64,000 nucleotides of DNA from assembly GCA_049903315.1 (NCBI GenBank), contig JBNGBT010000005.1, positions 32,001 through 96,000 of the forward strand, given 5' to 3'. Source of the stretch: Candidatus Cloacimonadota bacterium. Lineage in GTDB: Bacteria; Cloacimonadota; Cloacimonadia; JGIOTU-2. Below are positions 35,942 to 49,943 of this stretch, piece by piece. The notes beneath the pieces are model-generated. The model was not told the DNA's origin and did no database searches. It saw only the letters and a list, made by a program, of their open reading frames with translations. The stretch's first letter is position 1, and every line of letters starts with the position of its first letter. The position numbers and the translations under genes are program-made.

Positions 35942-37624
35942 TTATAACTGGTAAATATAGAATCTGTAGTAATAATTCGGATTATTACTTACGAACTTGA
36001 ACTTCAAACCAATATCTTCTGCATTCTTGATTTTTGCAGTTGAGAAGAGATACTTTACATCAAAGGTTCGCAATTCTGAGAGATCAAGCTTACAATAAAT
36101 GTCATTAATATTTTTCCTCATATAATCCTGGTCATAGTAATTCTTACCTATTTCATCATCAAATAAAAATAATGCCGAACCGTGATGTATGAAATAATCT
36201 GAGAGCATTTCGGATGATTCAAGTTCATCCTTGATTATCTTATAAAATATTTCTTTGAATTCGATAGGATAATAGGCACTAAAAGAACCGACTGTCTGAA
36301 AACCATTATAATTAGCAACCGCAGGGAAAAAACCAATACATCCAATGCGATATTCTGCGTTACATTCATCAAGTTGAAGTTTGATTTCATCAAATTGTTG
36401 CTCGGACATAAATTCTTTGAATGTTGGATGTCCACTGTAAGCTGTTATTGTTGAATATGAAAAATTTATGATTATTTGTGCGATGAGTAGGGTGGAGATA
36501 ACGACAAGTACCACTCTCTTTTTTGGCAAGATCTCGTATACTCCTTTGATGCAAAAAGCCCAGAGAATATACCAGAGTAATGTCATGAAAACGTAAATCC
36601 TGCTAAAATTGAATCCAATATTTAATGAGTCATAGAATAAAGAAAAGGGACGAAAAAAGTATATTCCATAAATAAAAAGTAGCATGAACTGCAGAGCCCA
36701 TAATTCGAGAATAGTTTTTTTCTGTCGTTTCTTACCGATTCTCAATAGTATGATCGAGAGGATAACACAGGTCGGCAGGATGAGATAGGAATGAAATAAA
36801 TGAGAGAGTTTGGAAGAATTGAAGAAGAGAAAGAACATGTTTTTTAAAGAATCAATGCAATTATATTTTTCCATTACCTGTGCAGCTCTATTTGTAGGGA
36901 TTTTCAAAATGAAGAAATTGTAGAAAACAGGAAAATGTGTTAATACTGCAAGCAGAAGGAAAAGAAGGGATGCGAGTAAGAAGTGAAGCCGCAGTTTCCT
37001 TTTTATCAGAAAATATATATTGAAAATTATAAGTAGGATGAAAATGTAAATCCCAGCAAAGAAGAAGTTCGAATAAAATGAGTAGACAACGATTATAAGG
37101 TATGAAAGTGTGATATAACGATTTTGATAGATATTGATGAAACCCAAAATAAGAAGGGGAATGCCGGCTATTGATAGATTTCCCTGAGGCCAGAATGGCA
37201 AAGAAATCCAGGCAAACGAAAAAAGAACCGGAACATATTCTGGAAAATTCTTCTTAAAAATGAACGTTTTGAGAAGTAAAAACATTCCAATAAACGAAAG
37301 AACACGATAGAAGAATTCATTGAGTACAAATCCCCAGAAATAATCGAAGGAGAAAAATAATTTATCCAACTTGAGATGGGAGAGATGAAAGATATTGTGT
37401 GTGGTAGGGAGAGTAAATTCCTGTATTCCTTGTCCGGGAATAAAAGATGCGCAGAACTTACCGTCAAAAATTCCCTGCATATTCAACTGGTTAAGATTGT
37501 CATGAATCGGTATATACACATTTTTTCCTCGAAAGATATATGGTGAAAAATACAAGGCAAAGAGAATTATTACGAGAATGGTAATGAAAATTATTGTCTC
37601 TAAGAAATTCTTCCGGCTGCTCAT
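35942..37624 (-). CDS. DUF6044-like polytopic membrane protein (putative GT-C-type transferase)
   Basis: IHDNL after first TM, many TM helices, PAVANYNGF, YP--FK--F-KII--EL. Confidence 0.7.
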   Translation of the reverse strand: MSSRKNFLETIIFITILVIILFALYFSPYIFRGKNVYIPIHDNLNQLNMQGIFDGKFCASFIPGQGIQEFTLPTTHNIFHLSHLKLDKLFFSFDYFWGFVLNEFFYRVLSFIGMFLLLKTFIFKKNFPEYVPVLFSFAWISLPFWPQGNLSIAGIPLLILGFINIYQNRYITLSYLIIVVYSFYSNFFFAGIYIFILLIIFNIYFLIKRKLRLHFLLASLLFLLLAVLTHFPVFYNFFILKIPTNRAAQVMEKYNCIDSLKNMFFLFFNSSKLSHLFHSYLILPTCVILSIILLRIGKKRQKKTILELWALQFMLLFIYGIYFFRPFSLFYDSLNIGFNFSRIYVFMTLLWYILWAFCIKGVYEILPKKRVVLVVISTLLIAQIIINFSYSTITAYSGHPTFKEFMSEQQFDEIKLQLDECNAEYRIGCIGFFPAVANYNGFQTVGSFSAYYPIEFKEIFYKIIKDELESSEMLSDYFIHHGSALFLFDDEIGKNYYDQDYMRKNINDIYCKLDLSELRTFDVKYLFSTAKIKNAEDIGLKFKFVSNNPNYYYRFYIYQL

Positions 37625-37628
37625 AATT

Positions 37629-38750
37629 TTATGTTAAGAATTGCCGTATATGATGAACAATTTCAGTAATATCATCAGGATTTAAACCGAAAAAAAGAGG
37701 AAGCCGGAGAATGGCTTTGCTGACCATGTCCGTAACCGGAAGTTTTGTGTTAGCGTATTTCCCTTGCCAGAATGGAGCAGAATGTAGTGGTATATAATGA
37801 AAAACTGACTGGATTCCTTGCTTTTCTAGGTATTCTATCAAGAGTTTTCTTTCTTTTGAGTTTGATAACATAATGTAGAAAATATGTGCATTCGATTGTA
37901 TATGTGAAGAGGTGGGTGGAAGAGATTCAGATGGTAAGAACCGCGAGAGCAGTTCATAATATAAATTCCATATATTAAAGCGTTGATGAGTAATTTCTGT
38001 AAGATGCAGCAACTGAGTGTATAAAAAAGCTGCCTGAAGTTCCGACATGAGAAAATTTGAGCTGCTCGATATCCATGTATAATGGTCTGACTCACCCTTT
38101 TGAAATTCTTCACGATTTGTTCCTTTGTTATAAAGGAAAGTAGCTTCTTCTAGCAAATCGTGATCATTTATCAGGAGTGCTCCGCCTTCACCACATTGGA
38201 TATTTTTGGTCTCATGAAAGCTCATAACTGCCAGATCGCCAAAACTGCCTAAAGATTGTTCATTATATTTAGCACCGATTCCCATAGCAGCATCTTCGAT
38301 TAAAATGACATTATGCTTTTTACAGATTTCGGTAATTTTGTCCATCTCACAAGCGAAACCGCCATAATGGACTATGACAATTGCCTTTGTTTTACGAGTG
38401 ATCAGTCTCTCAAGTTGATTTTCATCTATATTCTTTGTGTCTTCTCGAATATCGCACCAGACCAAATTAGCTCCATTCCGTACAAATGGATTTGCAGATG
38501 CAATATGAGTAAATGACGGCATGATTATTTCATCGTCGGGTTGAATATTAAGGAGTAGAGCACACATCTCCAGCGCTGCGGTACAGGAGGAGGTCATGAA
38601 GACACTTTTTGATGTAGTGATTTTTTCTAATTGTGTTGCACATTTGCTGCAGAATTCACCCATCCCGGAAAATTTCTGATCTGAGATTACTTTTTCCAAA
38701 TATTTCTGCTCATCTCCCCATACACACGGTATATTAAATGGAATTCTCAA
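37629..38750 (-). CDS. rffA: dTDP-4-amino-4,6-dideoxygalactose transaminase (WecE/RffA-like)
   Basis: IPFNIP, TSSCTAALEM, SFHETKNIQCGEGG, KGTNR, FHYIPLH; TTG start inferred. Confidence 0.88.
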   Translation of the reverse strand: MRIPFNIPCVWGDEQKYLEKVISDQKFSGMGEFCSKCATQLEKITTSKSVFMTSSCTAALEMCALLLNIQPDDEIIMPSFTHIASANPFVRNGANLVWCDIREDTKNIDENQLERLITRKTKAIVIVHYGGFACEMDKITEICKKHNVILIEDAAMGIGAKYNEQSLGSFGDLAVMSFHETKNIQCGEGGALLINDHDLLEEATFLYNKGTNREEFQKGESDHYTWISSSSNFLMSELQAAFLYTQLLHLTEITHQRFNIWNLYYELLSRFLPSESLPPTSSHIQSNAHIFYIMLSNSKERKLLIEYLEKQGIQSVFHYIPLHSAPFWQGKYANTKLPVTDMVSKAILRLPLFFGLNPDDITEIVHHIRQFLT

Positions 38751-39439
38751 TATCTTTTCTCTCCCCAGATATACTTGTATGATTGAGAGCCAGCACAAAA
38801 GAGTAAATCAAGAACCGAGACATTGTGTGAGAATATTCCCCACCGCTGATCATAGATTGGATAGTGTGAGTAATCCATATACTCGAGGGTGATGCAGTTT
38901 TCCTCGAATAATTCTGGTCTTATATATGCCTGAGCTGAAGGACCTGTGAGATAATGAGTGCCGCCAAGTTGTTTCACTATCGAAATGATTTTTTCGTTTT
39001 TGCCTTTAATAAGTTCAAGATCCGTGGATTGTAGGAATGTGGTCTCAATATTCAACACATTACATATTTCTTTGATTAAAGTTTGATTGAGCGCACTCAA
39101 TAGCTTCCAGTTCTGTAGAAGAATATTTTTAAAGAAAAGAAAATACTCATCAAAGAATGTGCATTCCGAGTAATTTCTCTGCAATGCCTTGAGATGCTTT
39201 TGTTGCCAGGACTGTGAATTATTGATCTCCACTTCATTGATCGGCATAGATTGGGTGCCGTTTGTGGGCACAGTAAGCCAGAGTAAGCCCTGTGGTGTTT
39301 TTATTTGATTTCGATTTCTCCAATTTCGTACTGTGTATTGTGTGGAATCGAGGAACACAAAGCAATCCACTTTTTGGATAATATGAAAATATCCTTTCCA
39401 CGGAATGTAATTTGACTGGAGAATTGCCACTTTTTTCAT
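38747..39439 (-). CDS. WbqC-like protein
   Basis: AILQSNYIPWKGYF, WRNRNQIK, WLTVP, YLTGP, SVLDLLF. Confidence 0.9.
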   Translation of the reverse strand: MKKVAILQSNYIPWKGYFHIIQKVDCFVFLDSTQYTVRNWRNRNQIKTPQGLLWLTVPTNGTQSMPINEVEINNSQSWQQKHLKALQRNYSECTFFDEYFLFFKNILLQNWKLLSALNQTLIKEICNVLNIETTFLQSTDLELIKGKNEKIISIVKQLGGTHYLTGPSAQAYIRPELFEENCITLEYMDYSHYPIYDQRWGIFSHNVSVLDLLFCAGSQSYKYIWGEKRY

Positions 39440-40092
39440 TCGGATTTTCTTATAAATTTTGCAGGATTTCCAGCCCATATCTCATTATCAGGAATGTTTT
39501 TGAGCAAAACTGAACCCATTCCCAGAGCAGAATATTTCCCGATACTAACATTTTCGCGTACAGTTGCATTCAAGCCGACATGAACGCCTTCAGAAATATT
39601 CACAAAAGAACTGATACATGACTGTGCTGCGAGATGGCAAAAATCTCCGACCACAGAATTATGCCCGACAGTTGCTCCGGGCATGACCAAACTGCAACAT
39701 CCGATTTTTACTCCCGTAGATATACTTGCATTCGGCATGATCACTGCTCCCGCATTTATGAGAACTTTCGGAGCAATATATGCGGTTGGATGAATAAATG
39801 TTGCTAATGATGTCCGTGGTATGCCCAAATCCCGAAATAGAGTTATGCGGGTTTCCTGCCCGTCAATCCGGTATATTGTGTTTATGAAATGATATCCAGC
39901 ATCGATAAATTTATTCACCTCATGCAATGTGCCAAGAACAGGGAATTCCTCAATACTTTCCCCTTTGCCGATCCTGTCATTGAGATAGCCTGCGAATTCA
40001 TATTCATGTGAACCTCGTTTGTGTGCATCACAGATCGCACCTGCAATGACAGAACCATTTCCGAGTCCACCCAAAATTATAACTTTTTTCAT
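39436..40092 (-). CDS. NeuD/PglD-family sugar acyltransferase (hexapeptide)
   Basis: IILGG-GNG, TFIHP, GHNSVVG, WAGNPAK. Confidence 0.85.
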   Translation of the reverse strand: MKKVIILGGLGNGSVIAGAICDAHKRGSHEYEFAGYLNDRIGKGESIEEFPVLGTLHEVNKFIDAGYHFINTIYRIDGQETRITLFRDLGIPRTSLATFIHPTAYIAPKVLINAGAVIMPNASISTGVKIGCCSLVMPGATVGHNSVVGDFCHLAAQSCISSFVNISEGVHVGLNATVRENVSIGKYSALGMGSVLLKNIPDNEIWAGNPAKFIRKSE

Positions 40093-40098
40093 ACTATC

Positions 40099-40830
40099 TT
40101 ATCCCAAAAATTTCTCTATTTTATAATATGGCTTTCTTCTGGATACCTGATTTAAAATTCGCATATTAGGCAAAATTCTGTCAAGAGCAAGCTCGACCAT
40201 TTTTTTAAGATCATACCCGCTGTTTCCTGCAAATCTTTTATCTCTATGAAGACTCACAACAGCATAATCCAAATGAAGCTTGTAAAACTGACTGAGTGTT
40301 GTTCCTGAATAAGCGAAAGGTTTTATGTGCTTATCATATACTTCTCTGTAAAAAGCCCTGAATACACCCATGTGTGGGGGATGATGAATTTTCGTGATAC
40401 AATTCGAAATATGAAAGAATATATTCGCAGGTATCGTTTTGCACAACGAGGCTTTTTGCGTTTCCCACATGGCGATTGCGATTTGTTTCTTATTGTCTTT
40501 CAAGGCATTTAAAAGTTTTGGAATGTCCTCCGGTTTGTCCTGCAGATCGGAATCCATTATCACAATTATATTTCCTGTTGCCTTTTCCAATCCCGCAGAA
40601 ATCGCGTTTGACTGCCCGAAATTTTTGGTGAGTTTGAGGATTTTAATTGCATTATACATATCATGATATGTCTTCAAGAGTGCGAAAGATTTATCAGAGC
40701 TGCCGTCATCCACAAAAATTATCTCATACTTAAGTGTCAGATAATCTAATACTGGAAGTAAGCGTTTTATTAATTCGGGAAGAACTTCTTGATCATTAAA
40801 AACAGGAATTATAATTGAAAGTTCAGGCAT
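40099..40830 (-). CDS. GT2 glycosyltransferase, ArnC/GtrB-like, lacking C-terminal TM helices
   Basis: IIPVFN, VDDGSSD, NFGQ, MDSDLQD, RFAG-SGY. Confidence 0.85.
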   Translation of the reverse strand: MPELSIIIPVFNDQEVLPELIKRLLPVLDYLTLKYEIIFVDDGSSDKSFALLKTYHDMYNAIKILKLTKNFGQSNAISAGLEKATGNIIVIMDSDLQDKPEDIPKLLNALKDNKKQIAIAMWETQKASLCKTIPANIFFHISNCITKIHHPPHMGVFRAFYREVYDKHIKPFAYSGTTLSQFYKLHLDYAVVSLHRDKRFAGNSGYDLKKMVELALDRILPNMRILNQVSRRKPYYKIEKFLG

Positions 40831-41812
40831 TTTTTTTGATATCCTTCTTATGAATTTGGATTAAAATACTCAAGAATCCTCCGATGAGAGCAGGAATTCC
40901 AGTGAGAATTAAAAAATTTAAAATTGAAACACTTAATGCAATTGAGGGTGGGACTCCAACCGATTCATAAAAGTAAACAAATGCTCCTTCACGCACACCA
41001 AAACCACTTATAGTAACAGGTATCAGCGAAATTATCTGAATGATCGGGACAAGAGCAAGGTGCGTCATGAATGGAATCTGAGCTCCGTATGCGCGGAATA
41101 CAATACTTACATTAATGATTGTCACAATCTGGAAGATTATCATAATTGGAATAACACGAATGATAATTTTTCCGAAAGGAAGGTCGGTGAAAGCTCCATG
41201 CAATGAAAGAATGAATGAAATAAGCTTTTTACAATGTTTTGGTTTTTGAGCACGGGTGGACAATTTTATGTAAATCTTCTTATGAGAGATGAGGATGAAT
41301 AGAAATGAAATGAAAATGATAACTGCGAATAAAATAATTCTACTAATCGCTAATTGTTCAAGATGGGGAAGCGAAAAGCTGAATCCAATACCAATAAGGC
41401 AGAGAAGCAAGAATCCGAAAATTTTTTCAACAACAACAGTACTTCCTGCTTTGCCTGGAATGTCCGGATGTCGTTTTTCTATGAGATATAACCTGATAGC
41501 CGCAAATCCGTCGGACGAAGGGAGCATGATGCCCCAAAAAATGGAGATGAAATTGATTTTGAGGATTTGAAAAATTGTTTCTTTTATTCCGGAAAAATAC
41601 AGCATGATCTTCCAACGGAAAGCAGCAAGAAGCGGAATGAAAAACAATGTGATGATGAGTGAAATGAAAAGCCAGTTCGGATCTGGAATTTGAGAGAATC
41701 TCTTGAAAAAGGAGATATGATATTTATAAACAATAAAAATGAGGAGAAATACAGAAATGATGAGTTGTACTATCGGATAGATTTTTCGCAGTTTTCCCGA
41801 ATGTGAACTCAT
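40823..41812 (-). CDS. Lysylphosphatidylglycerol-synthase TM (UPF0104) flippase-like protein
   Basis: RW...LPSS, PVTISGFGVREG; polytopic. Confidence 0.85.
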   Translation of the reverse strand: MSSHSGKLRKIYPIVQLIISVFLLIFIVYKYHISFFKRFSQIPDPNWLFISLIITLFFIPLLAAFRWKIMLYFSGIKETIFQILKINFISIFWGIMLPSSDGFAAIRLYLIEKRHPDIPGKAGSTVVVEKIFGFLLLCLIGIGFSFSLPHLEQLAISRIILFAVIIFISFLFILISHKKIYIKLSTRAQKPKHCKKLISFILSLHGAFTDLPFGKIIIRVIPIMIIFQIVTIINVSIVFRAYGAQIPFMTHLALVPIIQIISLIPVTISGFGVREGAFVYFYESVGVPPSIALSVSILNFLILTGIPALIGGFLSILIQIHKKDIKKNA

Positions 41813-42744
41813 TGGACGATTTCCATCATTCTGTTTAAAGATTTCCTGGTTTTGTAAACGATTTCATCCGGGAGTGTGATCTCTTTTTTTTCTTCTGCTA
41901 ATGCTCGAACCGCTCTACGCAAAGTGGTTTTTTTCATGTCATCACAAAGCATTTTATTGCTCAGAGACACGATGTTCTTTTGGGGATAATGATATTTCAA
42001 CTGGTCATACAAGCCGTATTCCGTGCCGATGATAAGATTGTCATGTTCCTTTGCATAATCCAGCATCTGGCTTGTTGAGCAGACGACATCCGCTTCCTTG
42101 CAGACATCCAGCCTGCATTCCGGGTGAACGAGCAGGGTGTAGTCGGGATATTGCTCCCGAACTGCTAATGTTTCATCAAGAGTTATATCGTCATGGACAT
42201 AGCAGGTGCTGTCGAACATTATCAGTTCTCTGCTAAGTTTATATGAAACCCACATGCCGATGTTTTTGTCAGGAATGAAGATAACTTCTTTCGATTTTGG
42301 GATGGAAGCAACAACCTCAATTGCATTTGCAGATGTGCATGTTATTGTGCTTTCTGCTTTGAGTTCAGCAGAAGAATTTACATAGCAGACAATCTCTGCA
42401 TATGGATGTTTTTCTTTCAAAATTCTAAGATCAGCAACTGTTTTCATCTGGGCAAGACGGCAGTCAGCATCCGGATGCGCCATGATGACTTTTTTGTCAG
42501 GATTCAGGATTTTGGCAGTTTCTCCCATAATAATAATTCCACACAGCAAAATCATATCCGCATCAGTTTGAGCCGCAACCTTTGCCATTTGAAGCGAATC
42601 TCCCACATAATCTGCAAGCTTCTGTACATCCATGAACTGATAATTATGTGCGAGGATAAAGCAGTTTTTCTGAGCTTTCAATTCGCTTGCTAACATATAC
42701 AGATCTTTTTTAGATAGTGAATCCCAATTGAGGATTTTTTGCAT
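41809..42744 (-). CDS. nadA: Quinolinate synthase NadA homologue
   Basis: ILAHNYQ, GDS, ETAKIL, YVNSSA, CYVH, HPEC, GTE, C--MK; three Fe-S cysteines retained. Confidence 0.9.
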   Translation of the reverse strand: MQKILNWDSLSKKDLYMLASELKAQKNCFILAHNYQFMDVQKLADYVGDSLQMAKVAAQTDADMILLCGIIIMGETAKILNPDKKVIMAHPDADCRLAQMKTVADLRILKEKHPYAEIVCYVNSSAELKAESTITCTSANAIEVVASIPKSKEVIFIPDKNIGMWVSYKLSRELIMFDSTCYVHDDITLDETLAVREQYPDYTLLVHPECRLDVCKEADVVCSTSQMLDYAKEHDNLIIGTEYGLYDQLKYHYPQKNIVSLSNKMLCDDMKKTTLRRAVRALAEEKKEITLPDEIVYKTRKSLNRMMEIVQ

Positions 42745-42758
42745 GACGAACTCCGATA

Positions 42759-44051
42759 CTATGTATATTTATTTCCTATTTTCGATATGATAAATGGCGT
42801 CTTTCCACTCTTTTCCGGTTTTTCAAGTTGTGACACTTGTATAAACTTTAACTCGATCGCATTGCCCAATCGCTTTCTCAGACCGGTTTCAAGCCTTTGT
42901 TCGGAGGTATCATTATAAGTTTTATCAACAACTAATTTTACGTCAATATGATGAATGCTGTTTTGAATAAGCTGTGAGCAGATCACACCTTGCGCATTAT
43001 CGATTGAATGAGACATTACTGCACCGAGAATTCTACCGTCTGGAGTCTCGATATAATCACATTGCTTACCAAGTATTTTTTTTACCATTCTAAAATGGCG
43101 TCCGCACGCACACGTCGTATCCTCGCTCTCAGGAACGATCGCATCGTTGATCTTGTACCTGATTAACGGCATTGAAAAATTATAGAGACTCGTTCCAACA
43201 AGTTTTGATATTCCATCTTCTTTGATTATTTCATGATAGGCAAAGTCCTCGATTAAGTGCAGGTTTCCATGCTCGCATTCCGAGATCATAGCTGCACATT
43301 CATGCATAGAAAAGAAATTATGAATTTTGCATTTGAAAGATTTTTCTAGCAGATTTCTTTTTTCATCCGAGAGCGTTTCGCCATACGTTACGATTGATTG
43401 AGGAGGATGGATTTCTATTCCTGCATCATGTGCAAATGTAGCCAGCATGAGCAAGTCAAAAGGAAATCCCATGAAAAATTTTGGTCGTTTCCGGTTAATT
43501 TCTCGAATTACTCGCAAAGCCGAATCTCTGGACAACCGATTTGAATCAAATCTGAGAATATTGTAGAATGGATTGAATGTGTAATCAGTATCGGTGAAGT
43601 AATAACTTTGTATGCTGAATGTCCGCTTTCCCAGCCTGTATCCAGCCCAATTATAACTTCGGAGCAACGCAGCGATCTTGTTTGCCTGAACCGAATTATC
43701 TAAGATGAAATGAAGTGGTGTGCCTGTCGAACCGCTGGTAGAATCCCATGTGATACCGAATTTTGCCGCATTATTAGAAATCAACTTTTCTTTACATGAT
43801 CGAACTGTCTCTTTGTCCAGAAGAGGGAGGTGAGTTAGGTCCTCTCTTCCTCGAAATTTATTTATATCAAAATTTAATTTTTTAAACAGATCGCGATAAT
43901 ATGGAACCTGTTTTCCTGCGTGTTGCAACAGTTTTATTAATTTTTCATCATGAAATTTTTCGATTTGTTTTTTCGTCCAGAATTGGCTTTTCTGGTAAAA
44001 TCTATAACGTTTTAAAACCCTAAATGGGATATGAAAGATTGATTTTTCCAA
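42759..44051 (-). CDS. Phenylacetate-CoA ligase/CapK-like adenylate-forming enzyme
   Basis: STSGSTGTPL, GETL, SECEHG, MPLIRY. Confidence 0.85.
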   Translation of the reverse strand: MEKSIFHIPFRVLKRYRFYQKSQFWTKKQIEKFHDEKLIKLLQHAGKQVPYYRDLFKKLNFDINKFRGREDLTHLPLLDKETVRSCKEKLISNNAAKFGITWDSTSGSTGTPLHFILDNSVQANKIAALLRSYNWAGYRLGKRTFSIQSYYFTDTDYTFNPFYNILRFDSNRLSRDSALRVIREINRKRPKFFMGFPFDLLMLATFAHDAGIEIHPPQSIVTYGETLSDEKRNLLEKSFKCKIHNFFSMHECAAMISECEHGNLHLIEDFAYHEIIKEDGISKLVGTSLYNFSMPLIRYKINDAIVPESEDTTCACGRHFRMVKKILGKQCDYIETPDGRILGAVMSHSIDNAQGVICSQLIQNSIHHIDVKLVVDKTYNDTSEQRLETGLRKRLGNAIELKFIQVSQLEKPEKSGKTPFIISKIGNKYT

Positions 44052-44054
44052 AAT

Positions 44055-44948
44055 CTATTTTTCTTCAATTTGACGGATCAGTTCATATCGATCGAGTAAC
44101 TTCTGTGCGCTTCGAACCAGAGGTGGTCCGATAAAATTCCCATCAATGACTGCAATTGATCTGTTCCCATTATATATTTCCCGGGAGAGTGTAACAATAC
44201 TCTCGGCTCTTTCAATTTCTTCCGGAGAGGGCGTATAATAACGATTGGTTAACTCAATTTCTTTAGGATGGAGAAGCAATGAGCCTTCAAATCCGAGAAT
44301 TCGTGTAATTTTCAGTTTCTTTTTTAATTTTTCCAGATTATGAACATCAATATTCAAAGTGTCGATCGGAATAATTCCTGCAGAGCGGGCAGCATTTGCG
44401 ATCATTGATCTGGGGAAAAGGAGTGCAAATTCCGGGTCATGATGTACGCCGCATAAATCTGATAAATAGTCCTCACATCCAAAAGCAACTGCGATTATTC
44501 TTGTTGAACTGCTACAAATTTTTTGTATATTCATAACTGCGGCAGTGGTTTCTATAAGTGGAATTATCTTGAAGTTTCTTTTTACAAATCCCCCCTTTTT
44601 TTCATAATGCTGTAACAGTTCATCGAATTGTATAATCTCTTCAGATTCAAATACTTTCGGATAAAGAAAACCGAGAATGAACTCATGTGTAAGCTCATCT
44701 AACTCGTGTTCAAGCAAGCCGCTATCAATGTCATTCAATCGTATGAATACCTGTTTGTTCTTGAAGATGTCTGCTTTTAGCAGTTTTTTTATCTCTTCTC
44801 GTGCGAAAAGTTTTTCACTTTCCACAACGGAATCTTCCAGATCAAGGATCAGTGCATCTGCCTTTGAATTAACTGCTTTTCGGATCAAGTCTGGTCTATT
44901 TCCCGGGACGAACAGCATGCTTCTTAGAATATACGTTTTTGTATTCAT
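44055..44948 (-). CDS. CitE/HpcH-family acyl-CoA lyase
   Basis: RSMLFVPG, ILDLEDSV, LIET, FGCEDY, LGFEG--L-HP. Confidence 0.9.
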   Translation of the reverse strand: MNTKTYILRSMLFVPGNRPDLIRKAVNSKADALILDLEDSVVESEKLFAREEIKKLLKADIFKNKQVFIRLNDIDSGLLEHELDELTHEFILGFLYPKVFESEEIIQFDELLQHYEKKGGFVKRNFKIIPLIETTAAVMNIQKICSSSTRIIAVAFGCEDYLSDLCGVHHDPEFALLFPRSMIANAARSAGIIPIDTLNIDVHNLEKLKKKLKITRILGFEGSLLLHPKEIELTNRYYTPSPEEIERAESIVTLSREIYNGNRSIAVIDGNFIGPPLVRSAQKLLDRYELIRQIEEK

Positions 44949-45412
44949 ATTAATTTTTTGGGAACCAGAATATGGCGCCTAAGAGTGAGAACTAATTCAT
45001 TTTTTTGATTATACGCTTTTGTTTCTACAAAGATAATCCCTTCGTTTGTTTTTGTTTTTGATTCTCTAACATCTAAGATTATGGAACTCGCATGAATGGT
45101 GTCACCGATGAATACAGGCGCATTATGGACGATCTTTTCATAATCAAGATTTGCAATTGCTTTTCCGCTGATGTCAGGAACACTCATGCCCACGACCAGG
45201 CTGATAATGTAGGTGCCAACAACAACTCGTCTTTTAAAAACAGTCTTAGAAGCATAATCTTCATCAAGATGAAGGGGATGATGGTTCATGGTAAGCTGGC
45301 AAAAAAGGTTGTTGTCACTTTCTGTAATTGTCTTTTTGGGAAAATGTTTATATACGTCACCTTGAGAGAATTCTCCAAAATATTTTCCAAATATATTGTT
45401 CGTAGCATTCAT
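44945..45412 (-). CDS. MaoC-family dehydratase
   Basis: TITESDN-LF--LTMNHHPLH, ANL, PVFIGDTI. Confidence 0.9.
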   Translation of the reverse strand: MNATNNIFGKYFGEFSQGDVYKHFPKKTITESDNNLFCQLTMNHHPLHLDEDYASKTVFKRRVVVGTYIISLVVGMSVPDISGKAIANLDYEKIVHNAPVFIGDTIHASSIILDVRESKTKTNEGIIFVETKAYNQKNELVLTLRRHILVPKKLI

Positions 45413-45555: not shown

Positions 45556-46743
45556 CTAAAGATATCTCAACCACCATTTTTCACGGTTATTGGTTTTATA
45601 CCTGTCATACCATTTGCATAAAGGGAACATAATCAAGATCACAATGACCCACACAAGATACACATATAAAAGACCGAAGCCAAAATTTGCAATTGATTCT
45701 GAGAAGAACACCTGCTTTGTAAGGATGTAATCACTCCAGTTTCGACCGGATAAAATCATCACTACTATTGCGAGGATATGAATGATATAGAGATGTATTA
45801 CATAGAAAAATAACGGTACCCGGCCAAAAATGATGATTTTATTTGTGAGTCTATTCTTGGAGTGCTCGATGATTGATAATAAAATTAGCGAAGGTCCCAT
45901 AGTCATCAAAAGAAATAGTAATGATGGGGGATATTTCGTTGGGTTAAAGAATGACATAACAGAGGAGATGAGGGATTTTTGAACGCTCCAATTCGTTGAG
46001 TCGCCATATATATTTAATAATCGAAATACAATAAATAACAGAGTAGAACTTATCCCAACATAGAGCAGCCATTTTCTTCTTTTTTGTGCTTTGAAATCTT
46101 TTTGATATAACGTGCCGAAAATATATCCTAGAGCCATTAATCCGATCCATGGAAGAATAGGGTAGACAAAATTAACTGCTGAATCTGAACCAAGTAAAAC
46201 CAGCTTTTGCTGATGGAGAGTGTACCAGATAAGATCAATAACAGATTTTCCACCAGCCTGAATAGGATCGAGTAAATTATGACTGAATACAAAAATAATT
46301 CCGATTGCCAGAATAATATATCTTGGTAAAAAAACTATTCCTGCTAAGTATATCATACATAGACCGATTGCCCAGATCACTTGCAGAATATGATAACTGA
46401 GAGTGATATCAAATGTCCATGCAAAATTGACGAAAATCAATTCTACGAACAGGAGCCAGATTCCCCGGGTGAATAAAAACCATGATAATGCTTTTATGCT
46501 TTTTCTGCGCGTCCCATACAGAAATGCGGAAATTCCTGCTAAAAAAATAAAAACAGGTGCACAGAAATGTGTTATCCATCTCGTAAAAAATAAGAGGGGA
46601 GTTGTCGTACTTGCATTAGCAGGGAAAGCGAAAAATGTTCCGAAGCCAAAAAAAATCCGGACGTGATCAAGTGCCATAATAATGATAACTATCCCACGGA
46701 GCAGGTCAATCGATCTTATCCTATAGTCTTGCATGTGTTCCAT
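45556..46743 (-). CDS. DUF1624/HGSNAT-like membrane acyltransferase
   Basis: SIDLLRG--I--MALDH, TRWITHFCAP, KYPPSL. Confidence 0.85.
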   Translation of the reverse strand: MEHMQDYRIRSIDLLRGIVIIIMALDHVRIFFGFGTFFAFPANASTTTPLLFFTRWITHFCAPVFIFLAGISAFLYGTRRKSIKALSWFLFTRGIWLLFVELIFVNFAWTFDITLSYHILQVIWAIGLCMIYLAGIVFLPRYIILAIGIIFVFSHNLLDPIQAGGKSVIDLIWYTLHQQKLVLLGSDSAVNFVYPILPWIGLMALGYIFGTLYQKDFKAQKRRKWLLYVGISSTLLFIVFRLLNIYGDSTNWSVQKSLISSVMSFFNPTKYPPSLLFLLMTMGPSLILLSIIEHSKNRLTNKIIIFGRVPLFFYVIHLYIIHILAIVVMILSGRNWSDYILTKQVFFSESIANFGFGLLYVYLVWVIVILIMFPLCKWYDRYKTNNREKWWLRYL

Positions 46744-47058: not shown

Positions 47059-49374
47059 ATGGGAAACCTAGATATTACGATATTATATGTCGAAGATGAA
47101 GTGCTCATTCTCAATTCCGTGAGTATGATACTCGAAAAAAGAGTAAAAAAAGTGTACACAGCTCTCAACGGTGAGGAAGGATTAAAGCTCTTTGAAAAAT
47201 ATCGACCTGATGTGGTCATTGCAGATATCATCATGCCGGAGATGGATGGTTTGATGTTGGCCAGGAGGATAAGAGCGATCGATCCCTCCACTGTTATAAT
47301 AGTACTCTCCGCATTTGATAAGAAAGAAAACTTGCTGGAGGCAATTACTATTGGCATTGACCGTTTTTTACCAAAACCACTGAACTATGATCATTTACTA
47401 AGGATAATAAACGAATTACATTCTACCAAAATCCTTGAACGAAGGATTGAAAAAGAGAAAACCGCACGTCAGATGGCAGAGCTGGAACTCGCTAAAACAG
47501 AGAAGAAATATCATGATCTCTATGACAATGCACCTGATATGTATTTTTCAGTTTCACCAGAAGGCACCATTACCGCAGTCAACCAATTCGGTGCGGAATA
47601 TCTTGGATATACAAAGGAAGAGTTAATAGGAAAAGCTGTATGGATGGTCGTTCATCAAGATGATTTGAAAGAAGTAAAGAAGCAGGTCTCAGAGATATTC
47701 AAAAAGAAGGAGGAGTTCAGCGAACTCGAATTCCGGAAAGTATCAAAAGACGGATCAATACTCTATGTTCATGAGCGTACTCAACTCATTTTTGATGAAA
47801 GTGGTATGCCCTCTGAGATCAGAATTATTTGCAGGGATATCACAGACCGACAACGTATCCAGCACGCACTTGAGGAAAGTGAGGAGCGGTACAGACTGGT
47901 CGTAGAACAGACAGGCCAGGTTGTGTTTGATGCGGATTATTCAAATCAAACAATAGAATTTGTAGGTGCTGTTAATGAGTTGTTCGCATATACGCGAGAC
48001 GACATTTCAGAATTTCTTTCTTTTTCAGATGCCGTGTTACTTATTCATCCTGATGATAAAGATGATGCTTTGAACGCAATAAAAAAAGCAACAAAAACAA
48101 GCAAGCGCTTTCAGATAGAATGCAGGATACAGAAAAAGGATAAAAATTATTTATATGCATATGTGAAAGGTGTATGTCTTGTAGATAACGATGGCAAAGT
48201 AGTAAGAATACTAGGTTCTGTCGCAGATATTACTTTGAGAAAAGAAAACGAAGCAAAATTGCAAGAAATGCATGAATATGTCCGAAACCTTATAGAAAGC
48301 TCACTTACTATGTTCATATCAGTAGATAATGATAGAAAAATAATAGAGTTCAACAGCGCTGCCGAGAAGAATTTCGGGTATAAGAAAAAAGAGGTTGTTG
48401 GGGAGCATATAAAATTACTTTATGCTGATGCTGATGAATGCACAAGGATAGGAAAATTAATTCAGAAGAATGGCACGTTTTATGGAACAGCCCGAAATAA
48501 AAGAAAAAACGGTGAGGAATTTATCAGTTATATATCTTCTGCACTCATGGAGGATGCGCAAGGCAACCAGATCGGAAGTGTGGGAAATTCAATTGATATT
48601 ACTGAATCACAGGAAAGAGAAAAGGAACTGAAACTTAAAGAAGAGCTCTACAAAACCCTTATGGAAACTGTTCAAAATGGAGTTGCAATTCTTGATCTTG
48701 AAGGAAAGATAATCGTATGCAACAAGCAAAATGCTGAAATGTTTGGTTATGAAGAACCCCAGGAACTCATAGGGGTGCAGAGAATTGAATTTGTGACGCC
48801 TGATGATCGGGACAGAGTTGCAAGGAACATGCGAAATCTCCTTGAAACAAATAATGATATTACTCGTATGGAAGTAGAGTTGCTGAGAAAAGACGGCTCC
48901 ACTTTCCATGCTTATTTCAGCGCTTCAATCATACATGATGACGAGGGAAATCCCATACAGATAATGGATACCATAACTGATATTTCAGTTCGAATAAATA
49001 ATGGGGACGATCTTATAAAAAAAAAGGAGAGATATAAAGGGCTTCTGAACAATTTACCTATTGCAATTGAGGAGTTTGATAAATCCGGTATCGTAACTTA
49101 TGTAAATAATCAGGCATTAAAATTGTTCGGATATACCAGAGATGAGATGTTACGAACAGGTATAGGGAAAATGTTTAAGTCCGAAACAAATGATTCGAAC
49201 AGTATCAACAGCTATTTTGCAGATATTCTTCATAAAAAGCCCGAGCCCTCTGTCTGGAAAGGTTTGTTCACGAAAAAGAACGGAGAGGAAGCACCCGTTT
49301 CAATTGCATGGAACTATAAAAAGGATGAACATGACCGAATCGTTGGATTCATTGCAGTTGTGAATGAGGTCTAA
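47059..49374 (+). CDS. Response regulator receiver plus five PAS domains, no output domain
   Basis: YVEDE...DIIMPEMDG...KP receiver; PAS units ending RDIT, ADIT, IDIT, TDIS and VNEV-stop. Confidence 0.85.
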   Translation: MGNLDITILYVEDEVLILNSVSMILEKRVKKVYTALNGEEGLKLFEKYRPDVVIADIIMPEMDGLMLARRIRAIDPSTVIIVLSAFDKKENLLEAITIGIDRFLPKPLNYDHLLRIINELHSTKILERRIEKEKTARQMAELELAKTEKKYHDLYDNAPDMYFSVSPEGTITAVNQFGAEYLGYTKEELIGKAVWMVVHQDDLKEVKKQVSEIFKKKEEFSELEFRKVSKDGSILYVHERTQLIFDESGMPSEIRIICRDITDRQRIQHALEESEERYRLVVEQTGQVVFDADYSNQTIEFVGAVNELFAYTRDDISEFLSFSDAVLLIHPDDKDDALNAIKKATKTSKRFQIECRIQKKDKNYLYAYVKGVCLVDNDGKVVRILGSVADITLRKENEAKLQEMHEYVRNLIESSLTMFISVDNDRKIIEFNSAAEKNFGYKKKEVVGEHIKLLYADADECTRIGKLIQKNGTFYGTARNKRKNGEEFISYISSALMEDAQGNQIGSVGNSIDITESQEREKELKLKEELYKTLMETVQNGVAILDLEGKIIVCNKQNAEMFGYEEPQELIGVQRIEFVTPDDRDRVARNMRNLLETNNDITRMEVELLRKDGSTFHAYFSASIIHDDEGNPIQIMDTITDISVRINNGDDLIKKKERYKGLLNNLPIAIEEFDKSGIVTYVNNQALKLFGYTRDEMLRTGIGKMFKSETNDSNSINSYFADILHKKPEPSVWKGLFTKKNGEEAPVSIAWNYKKDEHDRIVGFIAVVNEV

Positions 49375-49475
49375 AATCAATTTTGTTAAAAAAGAATCTT
49401 GAAAAAGCAAGATTAAAGTGTTACATTTGATGCTTCTTTATTAAGGAGTACGAAAAAAACAATAAGGAGATTTAT

Positions 49476-49943
49476 ATGAATCCAAAAGTTAAAATCATAA
49501 TTGCATTCACAATTGTATTCATAGTGCTTGTGACTGGAACCCTCTTTGCAGATGAAGCCGCAAAAGCAAAAGCTCTTGTTGAGCAAGGTGTAGTGATGGC
49601 TGTAATGAAGGGGGAAGGTCCAACCCTGAAGGCTATCCAAAATGTAAATGGTCCTTTTATTGATGGTGATTTGTATCTTTTTGCAGGTCCGCTAGATAGA
49701 GTTACAATGACTGCGCATCCCTATAAACCAGAGATTGTCAACACTGATTTAAGTACATTCAATGATGGTCACGGCAATTTTCTATTTTTTGATTTTGCAA
49801 AAATTGCAATAGAAGATGGTGCAGGCTGGACTGAGTACTGGTGGCCCAAACCTGGGAAGAAAGAACTCTCACACAAAAAAACGTATGTGATGAAGGTTCC
49901 CGGTCAAGACATGTACATTGCATGCGGTTATTACGCAGACTAA
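49476..49943 (+). CDS. Secreted stand-alone single Cache domain protein
   Basis: Signal peptide; FIDGDLYLF, AHP, GWTEYWWPKPG, K-TYV, CGYY. Confidence 0.85.
   Translation: MNPKVKIIIAFTIVFIVLVTGTLFADEAAKAKALVEQGVVMAVMKGEGPTLKAIQNVNGPFIDGDLYLFAGPLDRVTMTAHPYKPEIVNTDLSTFNDGHGNFLFFDFAKIAIEDGAGWTEYWWPKPGKKELSHKKTYVMKVPGQDMYIACGYYAD

Follow-up and report, generated by a model that had tools for sequence, protein, structure and literature searches.

A ten-gene cassette and its recurrence

We analyzed a 64,000-nt window of contig JBNGBT010000005.1 (positions 32,001 to 96,000 of the forward strand; assembly GCA_049903315.1 of a Candidatus Cloacimonadota bacterium, designated G000 below). The subject of this work is a run of ten open reading frames (ORFs), all on the minus strand, that extends from position 45412 of the window down to 35942. 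These ten genes very likely make up a surface glycosylation cassette, and one of them codes for a paralog of the quinolinate synthase NadA. A first-pass annotation had described ten co-oriented, tightly packed genes, and this description was confirmed, since neighboring genes either overlap or are separated by at most 14 nt. In the order from MaoC to DUF6044, the first six junctions measure -4, 3, 14, -4, -8 and 6 nt; two overlapping pairs follow, and the last gap is 4 nt. For the genes of WbqC and WecE, starts at 39439 and 38750 are likelier than those of the longest ORFs (39478 and 38798); with the shorter starts, both remaining overlaps are of 4 nt each.

The cassette opens with a MaoC hot-dog hydratase (44945..45412; PF01575, 5e-19) and a CitE-like TIM-barrel enzyme (44055..44948; PF03328), followed by an adenylating ligase of the PaaK/CapK/VpsH type (42759..44051) and by the cassette-specific NadA paralog (41809..42744), the only nadA of the genome. 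Next come a membrane protein with about seven hydrophobic segments (40823..41812), which scored over the LPG_synthase_TM / TIGR00374 cut-off and would act as a flippase, and a glycosyltransferase of family 2 (GT2; 40099..40830), a predicted polyprenyl-phosphate sugar synthase whose nearest models, PgfS and ArnC, were matched far below cut-off. The left-handed beta-helix sugar acyltransferase (39436..40092) belongs to the NeuD/PglB/VioB family (TIGR03570, 162 bits vs. a cut-off of 160.8). The last three genes code for a WbqC protein (38747..39439; PF08889, 7e-75), a WecE-type dTDP-4-amino-4,6-dideoxygalactose transaminase (37629..38750; NF008687, 472.5 bits vs. a cut-off of 375, and over the PRK11706 cut-off) and the polytopic membrane protein DUF6044 (35942..37624; PF19510), a likely outer-face transferase with a predicted GT-C fold. 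Family scans thus agreed with the earlier gene labels, although the ligase was identified solely through model scores under the cut-offs and through PaaK-type matches in the PDB.

The survey set consisted of 232 genomes of the class Cloacimonadia, from which 40 loci were fetched. The search with the ligase found matches at E ≤1e-80 in 40 of the 232 genomes, 34 of them at ≥53% identity and six at 35-41%. With ligase orthologs at ≥53% identity as its mark, the cassette is present in 34 genomes from five families; these genomes are kin, and the counts are not independent. All ten genes, in the same order, were found in 10 of the 40 fetched loci, and most of the other loci end at a contig edge. 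The recurrence of the ligase orthologs, together with the identical ten-gene order, argues that the cassette is more than a chance grouping, and the conservation of the gene set supposed in the first-pass annotation held in this search.

Within the genus the distribution is patchy (3 of 11 genomes carry the cassette). Among named relatives the closest, a Cloacimonadota genome, has a NadA identity of 86%. Named near homologs of the cassette NadA all belonged to Cloacimonadota, the range outside Cloacimonadia being weakly tested; by label, homologs of the ligase included two given as "bacterium" only and one from Armatimonadetes. Searches of plasmids returned only distant relatives of the ligase, CitE, MaoC and WbqC; therefore, no cultured strain of known glycan structure is tied to the cassette.

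Besides the complete loci, we observed several variants. The loci of G153 and G195 are without MaoC, CitE and WecE, and that of G192 is without WecE. The MaoC-CitE pair lies away from the ligase locus in G176, while in G058 the cassette is split between a MaoC-CitE-acyltransferase locus and a separate ligase-NadA-flippase-GT2-WbqC-WecE locus. On the basis of the split in G058, we read the gene set as two or more modules (MaoC-CitE-acyltransferase and ligase-NadA) rather than as a single linear route. In two loci, an ORF of about 380-420 aa on the opposite strand, possibly a mobile element, separates the ligase from nadA (L112:8338-9474 and L144:6576-7838). In addition, NadA is split over two frames in L039:9691-10607 (G058) and in G155:C2:439-1312, through either sequencing error or decay.

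The NadA paralog and the NAD pathway

The cassette NadA is very probably dedicated to the cassette rather than to the synthesis of nicotinamide adenine dinucleotide (NAD). It passed the cut-offs of both NadA models (TIGR00550, 302.6 vs. 262.9; NF006878, 345.7 vs. 294). In a tree of 80 sequences (FastTree, midpoint root; sequences outside 250-345 aa left out) the cassette copies formed one clade, with 28 of 28 tips and a support of 0.994, positioned beside the housekeeping copies of the same order. A profile of this clade found matches at E ≤1e-125 in 33 of the 232 genomes; two were housekeeping neighbors, and the other 31, all intact cassette-type NadA, came from genomes with a ligase ortholog. 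Of the 29 loci in which the DNA after the ligase was assembled, 28 have NadA no more than about 1.5 kb from the ligase; G011 is the exception.

The cluster cysteines Cys95, Cys181 and Cys267 are kept in 72-73 of 73 near homologs, and so are His33, Tyr35, Asp49, Ser50, Met73, Tyr121, Asn123, Ser138, His184, His207, Glu209, Ser223 and Thr224, which we take, from the structural literature, to have catalytic roles. Changes fixed in the clade are Ile70, Ile72, His90, Met53 and Thr133. The Ile70/His90 signature occurred in only two of the 150 NadA representatives listed, which makes the clade a compact one. The ratio of nonsynonymous to synonymous rates (dN/dS) of 0.09-0.12 indicated purifying selection.

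The genomic setting of this gene differs from that of de novo NAD synthesis, with NadB or NadX upstream and NadC downstream. We found nadC in 26 of the 34 cassette genomes, and all 26 hold a further nadA elsewhere. In each of the remaining eight, which had no nadC match, the cassette copy is the only nadA. A nadB over cut-off was not found in six of the 34 genomes, all six among the eight without a nadC match; their completeness is 96% (G000), 95% (G003), 77% (G004), 93% (G177), 83% (G187) and 93% (G192). The other two of the eight have nadB (G180) or a partial nadB match (G179), and genome incompleteness may explain the missing nadC in both.

In G000 itself we found no nadC match, no nadX match and no nadB over cut-off. 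The housekeeping nadA site (G000:C71:106419-107560) is empty, with dut running into a methyltransferase gene; an assembly gap as the cause of the absence was rejected, since the site between these two genes is assembled. The sole match to the nadB model in G000 was a flavoprotein of 555 aa at L002:1339-3714 (G000:C33). We rejected it as NadB because its best model was TfrA, its scores were below all cut-offs and it is present in genus members without nadA, though it may moonlight in that role. At its locus this TfrA-like protein has an iron-sulfur partner and adjoins hydrogenase-type subunits. Nine of the 10 other genomes of the genus are likewise without a nadC match. A possible salvage gene of G000 is 88-89% identical to weak nicotinate phosphoribosyltransferase (NAPRTase) matches of two sister genomes and was missed by the family search here.

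A nadA match in these genomes is no safe sign of de novo NAD synthesis. The persistence of a NadA clade where nadB and nadC have been lost suggests that the enzyme serves some other purpose and draws on another supply of substrate. The idea of a dedicated NadA in the cassette gained support from the separate clade, from the fixed linkage to the ligase and from its retention without nadB and nadC.

Acyl chemistry, sugar assembly and export

The CitE-like protein kept the barrel Arg70 and the Mg-binding Glu133 and Asp160. In alignments to CLYBL, 1SGJ and Mcl, however, the lid position is occupied by Gly274, whereas Asp is found there in CLYBL, in the malyl-CoA (coenzyme A) lyases and in the citrate-lyase-type protein of the same genome. 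Glycine was present at this position in all of the best 120 of 1441 near homologs (E ≤1e-60), and Asp in three citrate-lyase-type copies. In the part of PMC3832036 accessible to us, the lid Asp is conserved across the CitE-like superfamily, replaced by Glu in malyl-CoA thioesterases, and its role is proton transfer to the enolate. The change to Gly therefore makes standard lyase chemistry doubtful for this protein; decarboxylative condensation of malonyl-CoA would be one way for it to need no base. The malyl-, citramalyl- or methylmalyl-CoA chemistry first proposed is weakened accordingly. The Gly-lid proteins (window 44055-44948, P0206-P0325) form a large CitE-like subfamily, and CitE proteins of other glycan loci have Ser, Ala or Thr at the same position. 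In each of the loci L135 and L137, two different CitE-like genes stand in tandem, and the lid Asp is absent from both.

The partner of this protein, MaoC, is of the Ich/RipB and mesaconyl-CoA hydratase type, and its best PDB matches were 4E3E and the beta-methylmalyl-CoA dehydratase 8HGN. Its Asn-His motif (LTMNHHPLH) is that of the dicarboxylyl-CoA hydratases that it matches best. Scores of the pair were below the RipB/RipC equivalog cut-offs (136 vs. 340 bits for MaoC and RipB_Ich, and 134 vs. 375 bits).

No Pfam family matched the ligase, and its matches to PaaK, F390 and FlxY models were all below cut-off. It has the adenylation motifs of PaaK-type enzymes (the P-loop STSGSTG and the C-terminal lysine of GKTP) and stands in a glycan locus; its PDB matches 9S3L, 4R1L, 6SIW and 6WUQ are phenylacetate-CoA ligases, PaaK-like ligases and AjiA1. 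A vps-like cluster contains a ligase gene to which it shows 28.5% identity. According to the available portion of PMC13463779, deletion showed VpsH to be needed for a glycine amide on a Vibrio polysaccharide, and activation of a carboxylate was suggested there without biochemistry. The enzyme, of the PaaK/CapK type as first labeled, need not be a CoA ligase, given the amide for which its relative VpsH is needed (PMC13463779, same portion).

Relatives of the ligase were found in three contexts: beside NadA, in sister loci (54-57% identity) and in six genomes at 35-41%. The sister loci, five in number and all from metagenomes, carry a WecE-like gene; the three that were checked also have an NDP-hexose 2,3-dehydratase, and this gene content suggests an acylated 2,4,6-trideoxy-4-amino sugar as the product. 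The only complete one, L160:6231-15543 (the others are L150, L157, L159 and L161), has no NadA and the gene order WbqC-GT2-acyltransferase-MaoC-CitE-ligase-WecE-like-NDP-hexose 2,3-dehydratase-PMT_2 transferase. The six distant loci also have no NadA and instead have an octopine-dehydrogenase or alanine-dehydrogenase-like (AlaDH-like) gene one or two genes away. The AlaDH-like genes, of which we see the domain only, are presumably opine synthases. Such neighbors fit a ligase that uses a nitrogen-containing diacid made next door. The distant loci L130 and L133-L137 also carry ATP-grasp and PGA_cap proteins. Opine glycans are known in both directions, with alanopine acylating 4-amino-4,6-dideoxyglucose (Qui4N) and carboxyethyl-lysine amidating a uronic acid (PMC10609480, consulted in part); the precedent therefore leaves the direction of the amide unfixed. 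Two positions of the ligase track its context, Gln122 in the NadA-type loci vs. Arg in the sister loci without NadA, and Met/Leu249 vs. Gln; judged by alignment to PaaK, they may line the acid pocket.

As for the sugar, a 4-amino-6-deoxy sugar was expected from the first pass and is supported by WecE (over the equivalog cut-off), by rmlB, which is present in the genome, and by the acyltransferase, whose best PDB match is VioB 7TXP (1e-26). The folds of WbqC and DUF6044 were both assigned with the VIA-align representative search. The WbqC model, with a predicted local distance difference test score (pLDDT) of 94.7, had its best match in BshC (Z 13.8, root-mean-square deviation 3.5, 219 of 229 residues aligned), followed by lysyl-tRNA synthetase (LysRS; Z 10.9), and a BshC-like, class I aminoacyl-tRNA-synthetase-like fold is predicted. 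Neither a notable PDB match by sequence nor a DNA match in E. coli genomes turned up for WbqC. BshC is the cysteine-adding enzyme of bacillithiol synthesis. WbqC has been proposed to add glycine, in line with the BshC-like fold of the model, and on this modeled fold it probably attaches an amino acid to the amine of the sugar. N-acetylglycine occurs in E. coli O121, as stated in the accessible part of PMC7685785.

The DUF6044 profile had no PDB sequence match. Its model (pLDDT 88.9) gave GT-C enzymes in all top 11 fold matches (Pmt1, Pmt4, OST-B, AftA, PglB, AftD, ArnT and others), at Z 8.5-12.3, which is below the caution level of about 13 for helical proteins, and with 334-466 residues aligned vs. 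mostly 70-150 in unrelated rows. The GT2 protein has no C-terminal membrane segment. With DUF6044 predicted to have a GT-C fold, the lipid-carrier export logic proposed at first is supported.

The flanks of the cassette are ordinary, with an M28 peptidase and an ABC exporter on one side and an HGSNAT-like membrane protein, signaling genes and the dcw cluster on the other. The GC content is 0.371 in the cassette vs. 0.385 in the genome, and dN/dS against three close loci was 0.07-0.24 for all cassette genes. The scan of the window for promoters and terminators stayed at the level of shuffled sequence (45 and 8 sites vs. 46.8 and 8.6). The HGSNAT-like membrane acyltransferase (window 45556-46743, same strand) starts 143 nt upstream of MaoC; we rejected it as a cassette member because it adjoins the cassette only in G004. 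Further along, at 47059-49943, a protein of 771 aa has a receiver domain and PAS domains, with no output domain found, and adjoins a stand-alone Cache-domain protein (155 aa); this gene pair is also present in G004.

Possible routes and relation to known systems

Our tentative preference, somewhat short of an even chance, is for a quinolinate-type acyl group on the cassette sugar, linked by the ligase through an amide to aminoacylated 4-amino-4,6-dideoxygalactose (Fuc4N). We prefer it because the catalytic set of NadA is intact, the ligase-NadA pair is fixed and a diacid-forming enzyme occupies the same slot in relatives. Every reaction in this route is one that we infer. WecE, by family match, would make dTDP-Fuc4N from the RmlB product, and WbqC, by predicted fold, would place an amino acid on the 4-amine. 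MaoC, the CitE without the Asp and the VioB-like transferase would work as one module that, through non-standard chemistry, forms a dicarboxylic acyl group and passes it on. NadA may supply quinolinate or a close analog, which the adjoining ligase, to which it is linked in the loci, would adenylate and join by an amide as a pyridine acid. The GT2 would then load the sugar, the flippase-like protein flip it and DUF6044 transfer it to an envelope acceptor.

Several observations weigh against quinolinate as the acyl group. The cassette copy was the sole nadA beside nadC in none of 26 genomes, and so its product could be other than free quinolinate; with no nadB over cut-off in six cassette genomes, the source of iminoaspartate is unexplained. 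Position 72 is Ile in 73 of 73 near homologs vs. Phe in 138 of 143 scored NadA representatives. We found no NadA in the assembled DNA of the five sister loci, which have MaoC and CitE where assembled. For a single sugar amine, the cassette has three possible acylating proteins. A pyridine-carboxylate substituent of a glycan was not found in literature searches. Finally, the direction proposed for VpsH (PMC13463779, in the portion available) is the reverse, with a glycan carboxyl receiving a small amine, and no free amine is present in quinolinate.

The main rival, a new chemistry of NadA, is a better explanation of the missing nadB and of the never-replaced housekeeping nadA, but we regard it as somewhat less likely overall than the quinolinate-type route. 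Here the iron-sulfur site would act, as a hydro-lyase or a condensing enzyme, on a substrate made within the cassette, be it a C4/C5 dicarboxylate or an imine supplied by MaoC-CitE, and the ligase would, in the fashion of VpsH, join an amine to the free carboxyl of the dicarboxylic acyl group on the sugar. Besides the VpsH precedent and the persistence of NadA without nadB, nadC and nadX, it draws on its never being the sole copy beside nadC (0/26), on the fixed changes beside Met73 and on a CitE that has also lost its standard catalytic residue. Moreover, the two genomes without the cassette-type CitE (G153 and G195) both have nadB, and in the genomes without nadB the CitE gene is retained in the cassette, though the numbers are small. 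On the other hand, NadA kept all conserved catalytic residues and passed the equivalog cut-offs, in G058 MaoC-CitE go with the acyltransferase and not with NadA, and the same CitE clade occurs in loci without NadA.

Quite improbable is a standard dicarboxylic route without any part for NadA, where the ligase would make an acyl-CoA, ordinary Claisen chemistry of CitE and MaoC would convert malyl-, citramalyl- or methylmalyl-CoA into one another, and the acyltransferase would load Fuc4N. MaoC is indeed nearest to itaconyl- and mesaconyl-CoA hydratases, sister cassettes do without NadA, and N-malyl glycans exist (PMC10609480, as far as its available text goes). The route has to face, however, the Gly in place of the lid Asp in 120 of 120 near homologs listed, a NadA that is under purifying selection and has a fixed place next to the ligase (28 of 29 loci), and the separation of the ligase from MaoC-CitE in G058 and G176. 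That NadA merely rides along in the operon by chance, or is kept there as a reserve copy for NAD synthesis, is very improbable: its family score is that of a bona fide NadA, 26 of 34 cassette genomes have nadC and gene absence from incomplete genomes proves little, but it is kept where nadC and nadB were not found (including the genome with the assembled, empty housekeeping site), at the same position across five families and as a monophyletic clade with fixed residues of its own.

Returning to the quinolinate-type route and its setting, we give nearly an even chance to a broader statement. A NadA paralog would have been repurposed outside NAD metabolism, independently of NadB and together with the Asp-less CitE and a CapK-type ligase, for a pyridine-carboxylate or another new substituent of a surface sugar, and the ligase family would swap partners (opine dehydrogenase, NadA or none) and thus diversify glycans. 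Literature searches, with most subscription papers outside their coverage, returned no account of the ten-gene cassette or of a glycan-linked NadA. To our knowledge, NadA is known only as an enzyme of the NAD pathway. The cassette also offers testable leads for three families that are little understood: for WbqC through its predicted BshC-like fold, for DUF6044 through its predicted GT-C fold, and for a CitE-like subfamily without the supposedly universal catalytic aspartate.

Compared with known systems, the cassette NadA resembles the quinolinate synthases (Pyrococcus 5KTM/1WZU/4HHE and the 4P3X series) over its full length (E 5e-68), and it shares with them all three cysteines of the cluster as well as the conserved His, Ser, Tyr, Glu and Thr. 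It differs in its glycosylation setting, its separate clade with Ile70/Ile72/His90, its persistence without nadB and nadC, and in never being the sole nadA of a nadC-positive genome. The ligase is homologous to the VpsH/CapK-type and PaaK-like ligases, including AjiA1, by its identity to the vps-like cluster ligase and its PDB matches; it is paired with NadA, while its relatives stand with opine-dehydrogenase-like genes or NDP-hexose 2,3-dehydratase. MaoC and the CitE-like protein are like the RipB/RipC (Ich/Ccl) and Mch/Mcl pairs in gene pairing, fold family, Arg and Mg residues and the Asn-His motif, but differ in the lid Asp, in scores below all equivalog cut-offs and in the glycan context. 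WbqC, whose model has BshC as its best fold match, is only 10% identical to it (229 aa vs. 540), and a shared fold shows no function.

In the N-acyl 4-amino-6-deoxy sugar pathways (VioA/VioB, the N-acetylglycyl sugar of E. coli O121, alanopine-Qui4N of Providencia O35) we likewise see an aminotransferase, a left-handed beta-helix acyltransferase and helper genes that make the acyl group. The anthrose operon is a further pathway of this type. The cassette, however, has an iron-sulfur NadA, which we found in none of these pathways, and would export a single sugar by a lipid carrier rather than by Wzx/Wzy. The three-component systems (GtrABC, ArnC-ArnEF-ArnT) share with it a GT2, a flippase-like protein and a transferase, here of predicted GT-C fold (for the Gtr logic, see the accessible part of PMC7685785). 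Unlike them, the cassette has LPG_synthase_TM rather than GtrA or ArnEF as its flippase candidate, has a GT2 without the membrane tail, and additionally encodes the sugar and its acyl chemistry. It is thus likely a variant of lipid-carrier glycosylation with a repurposed NadA.

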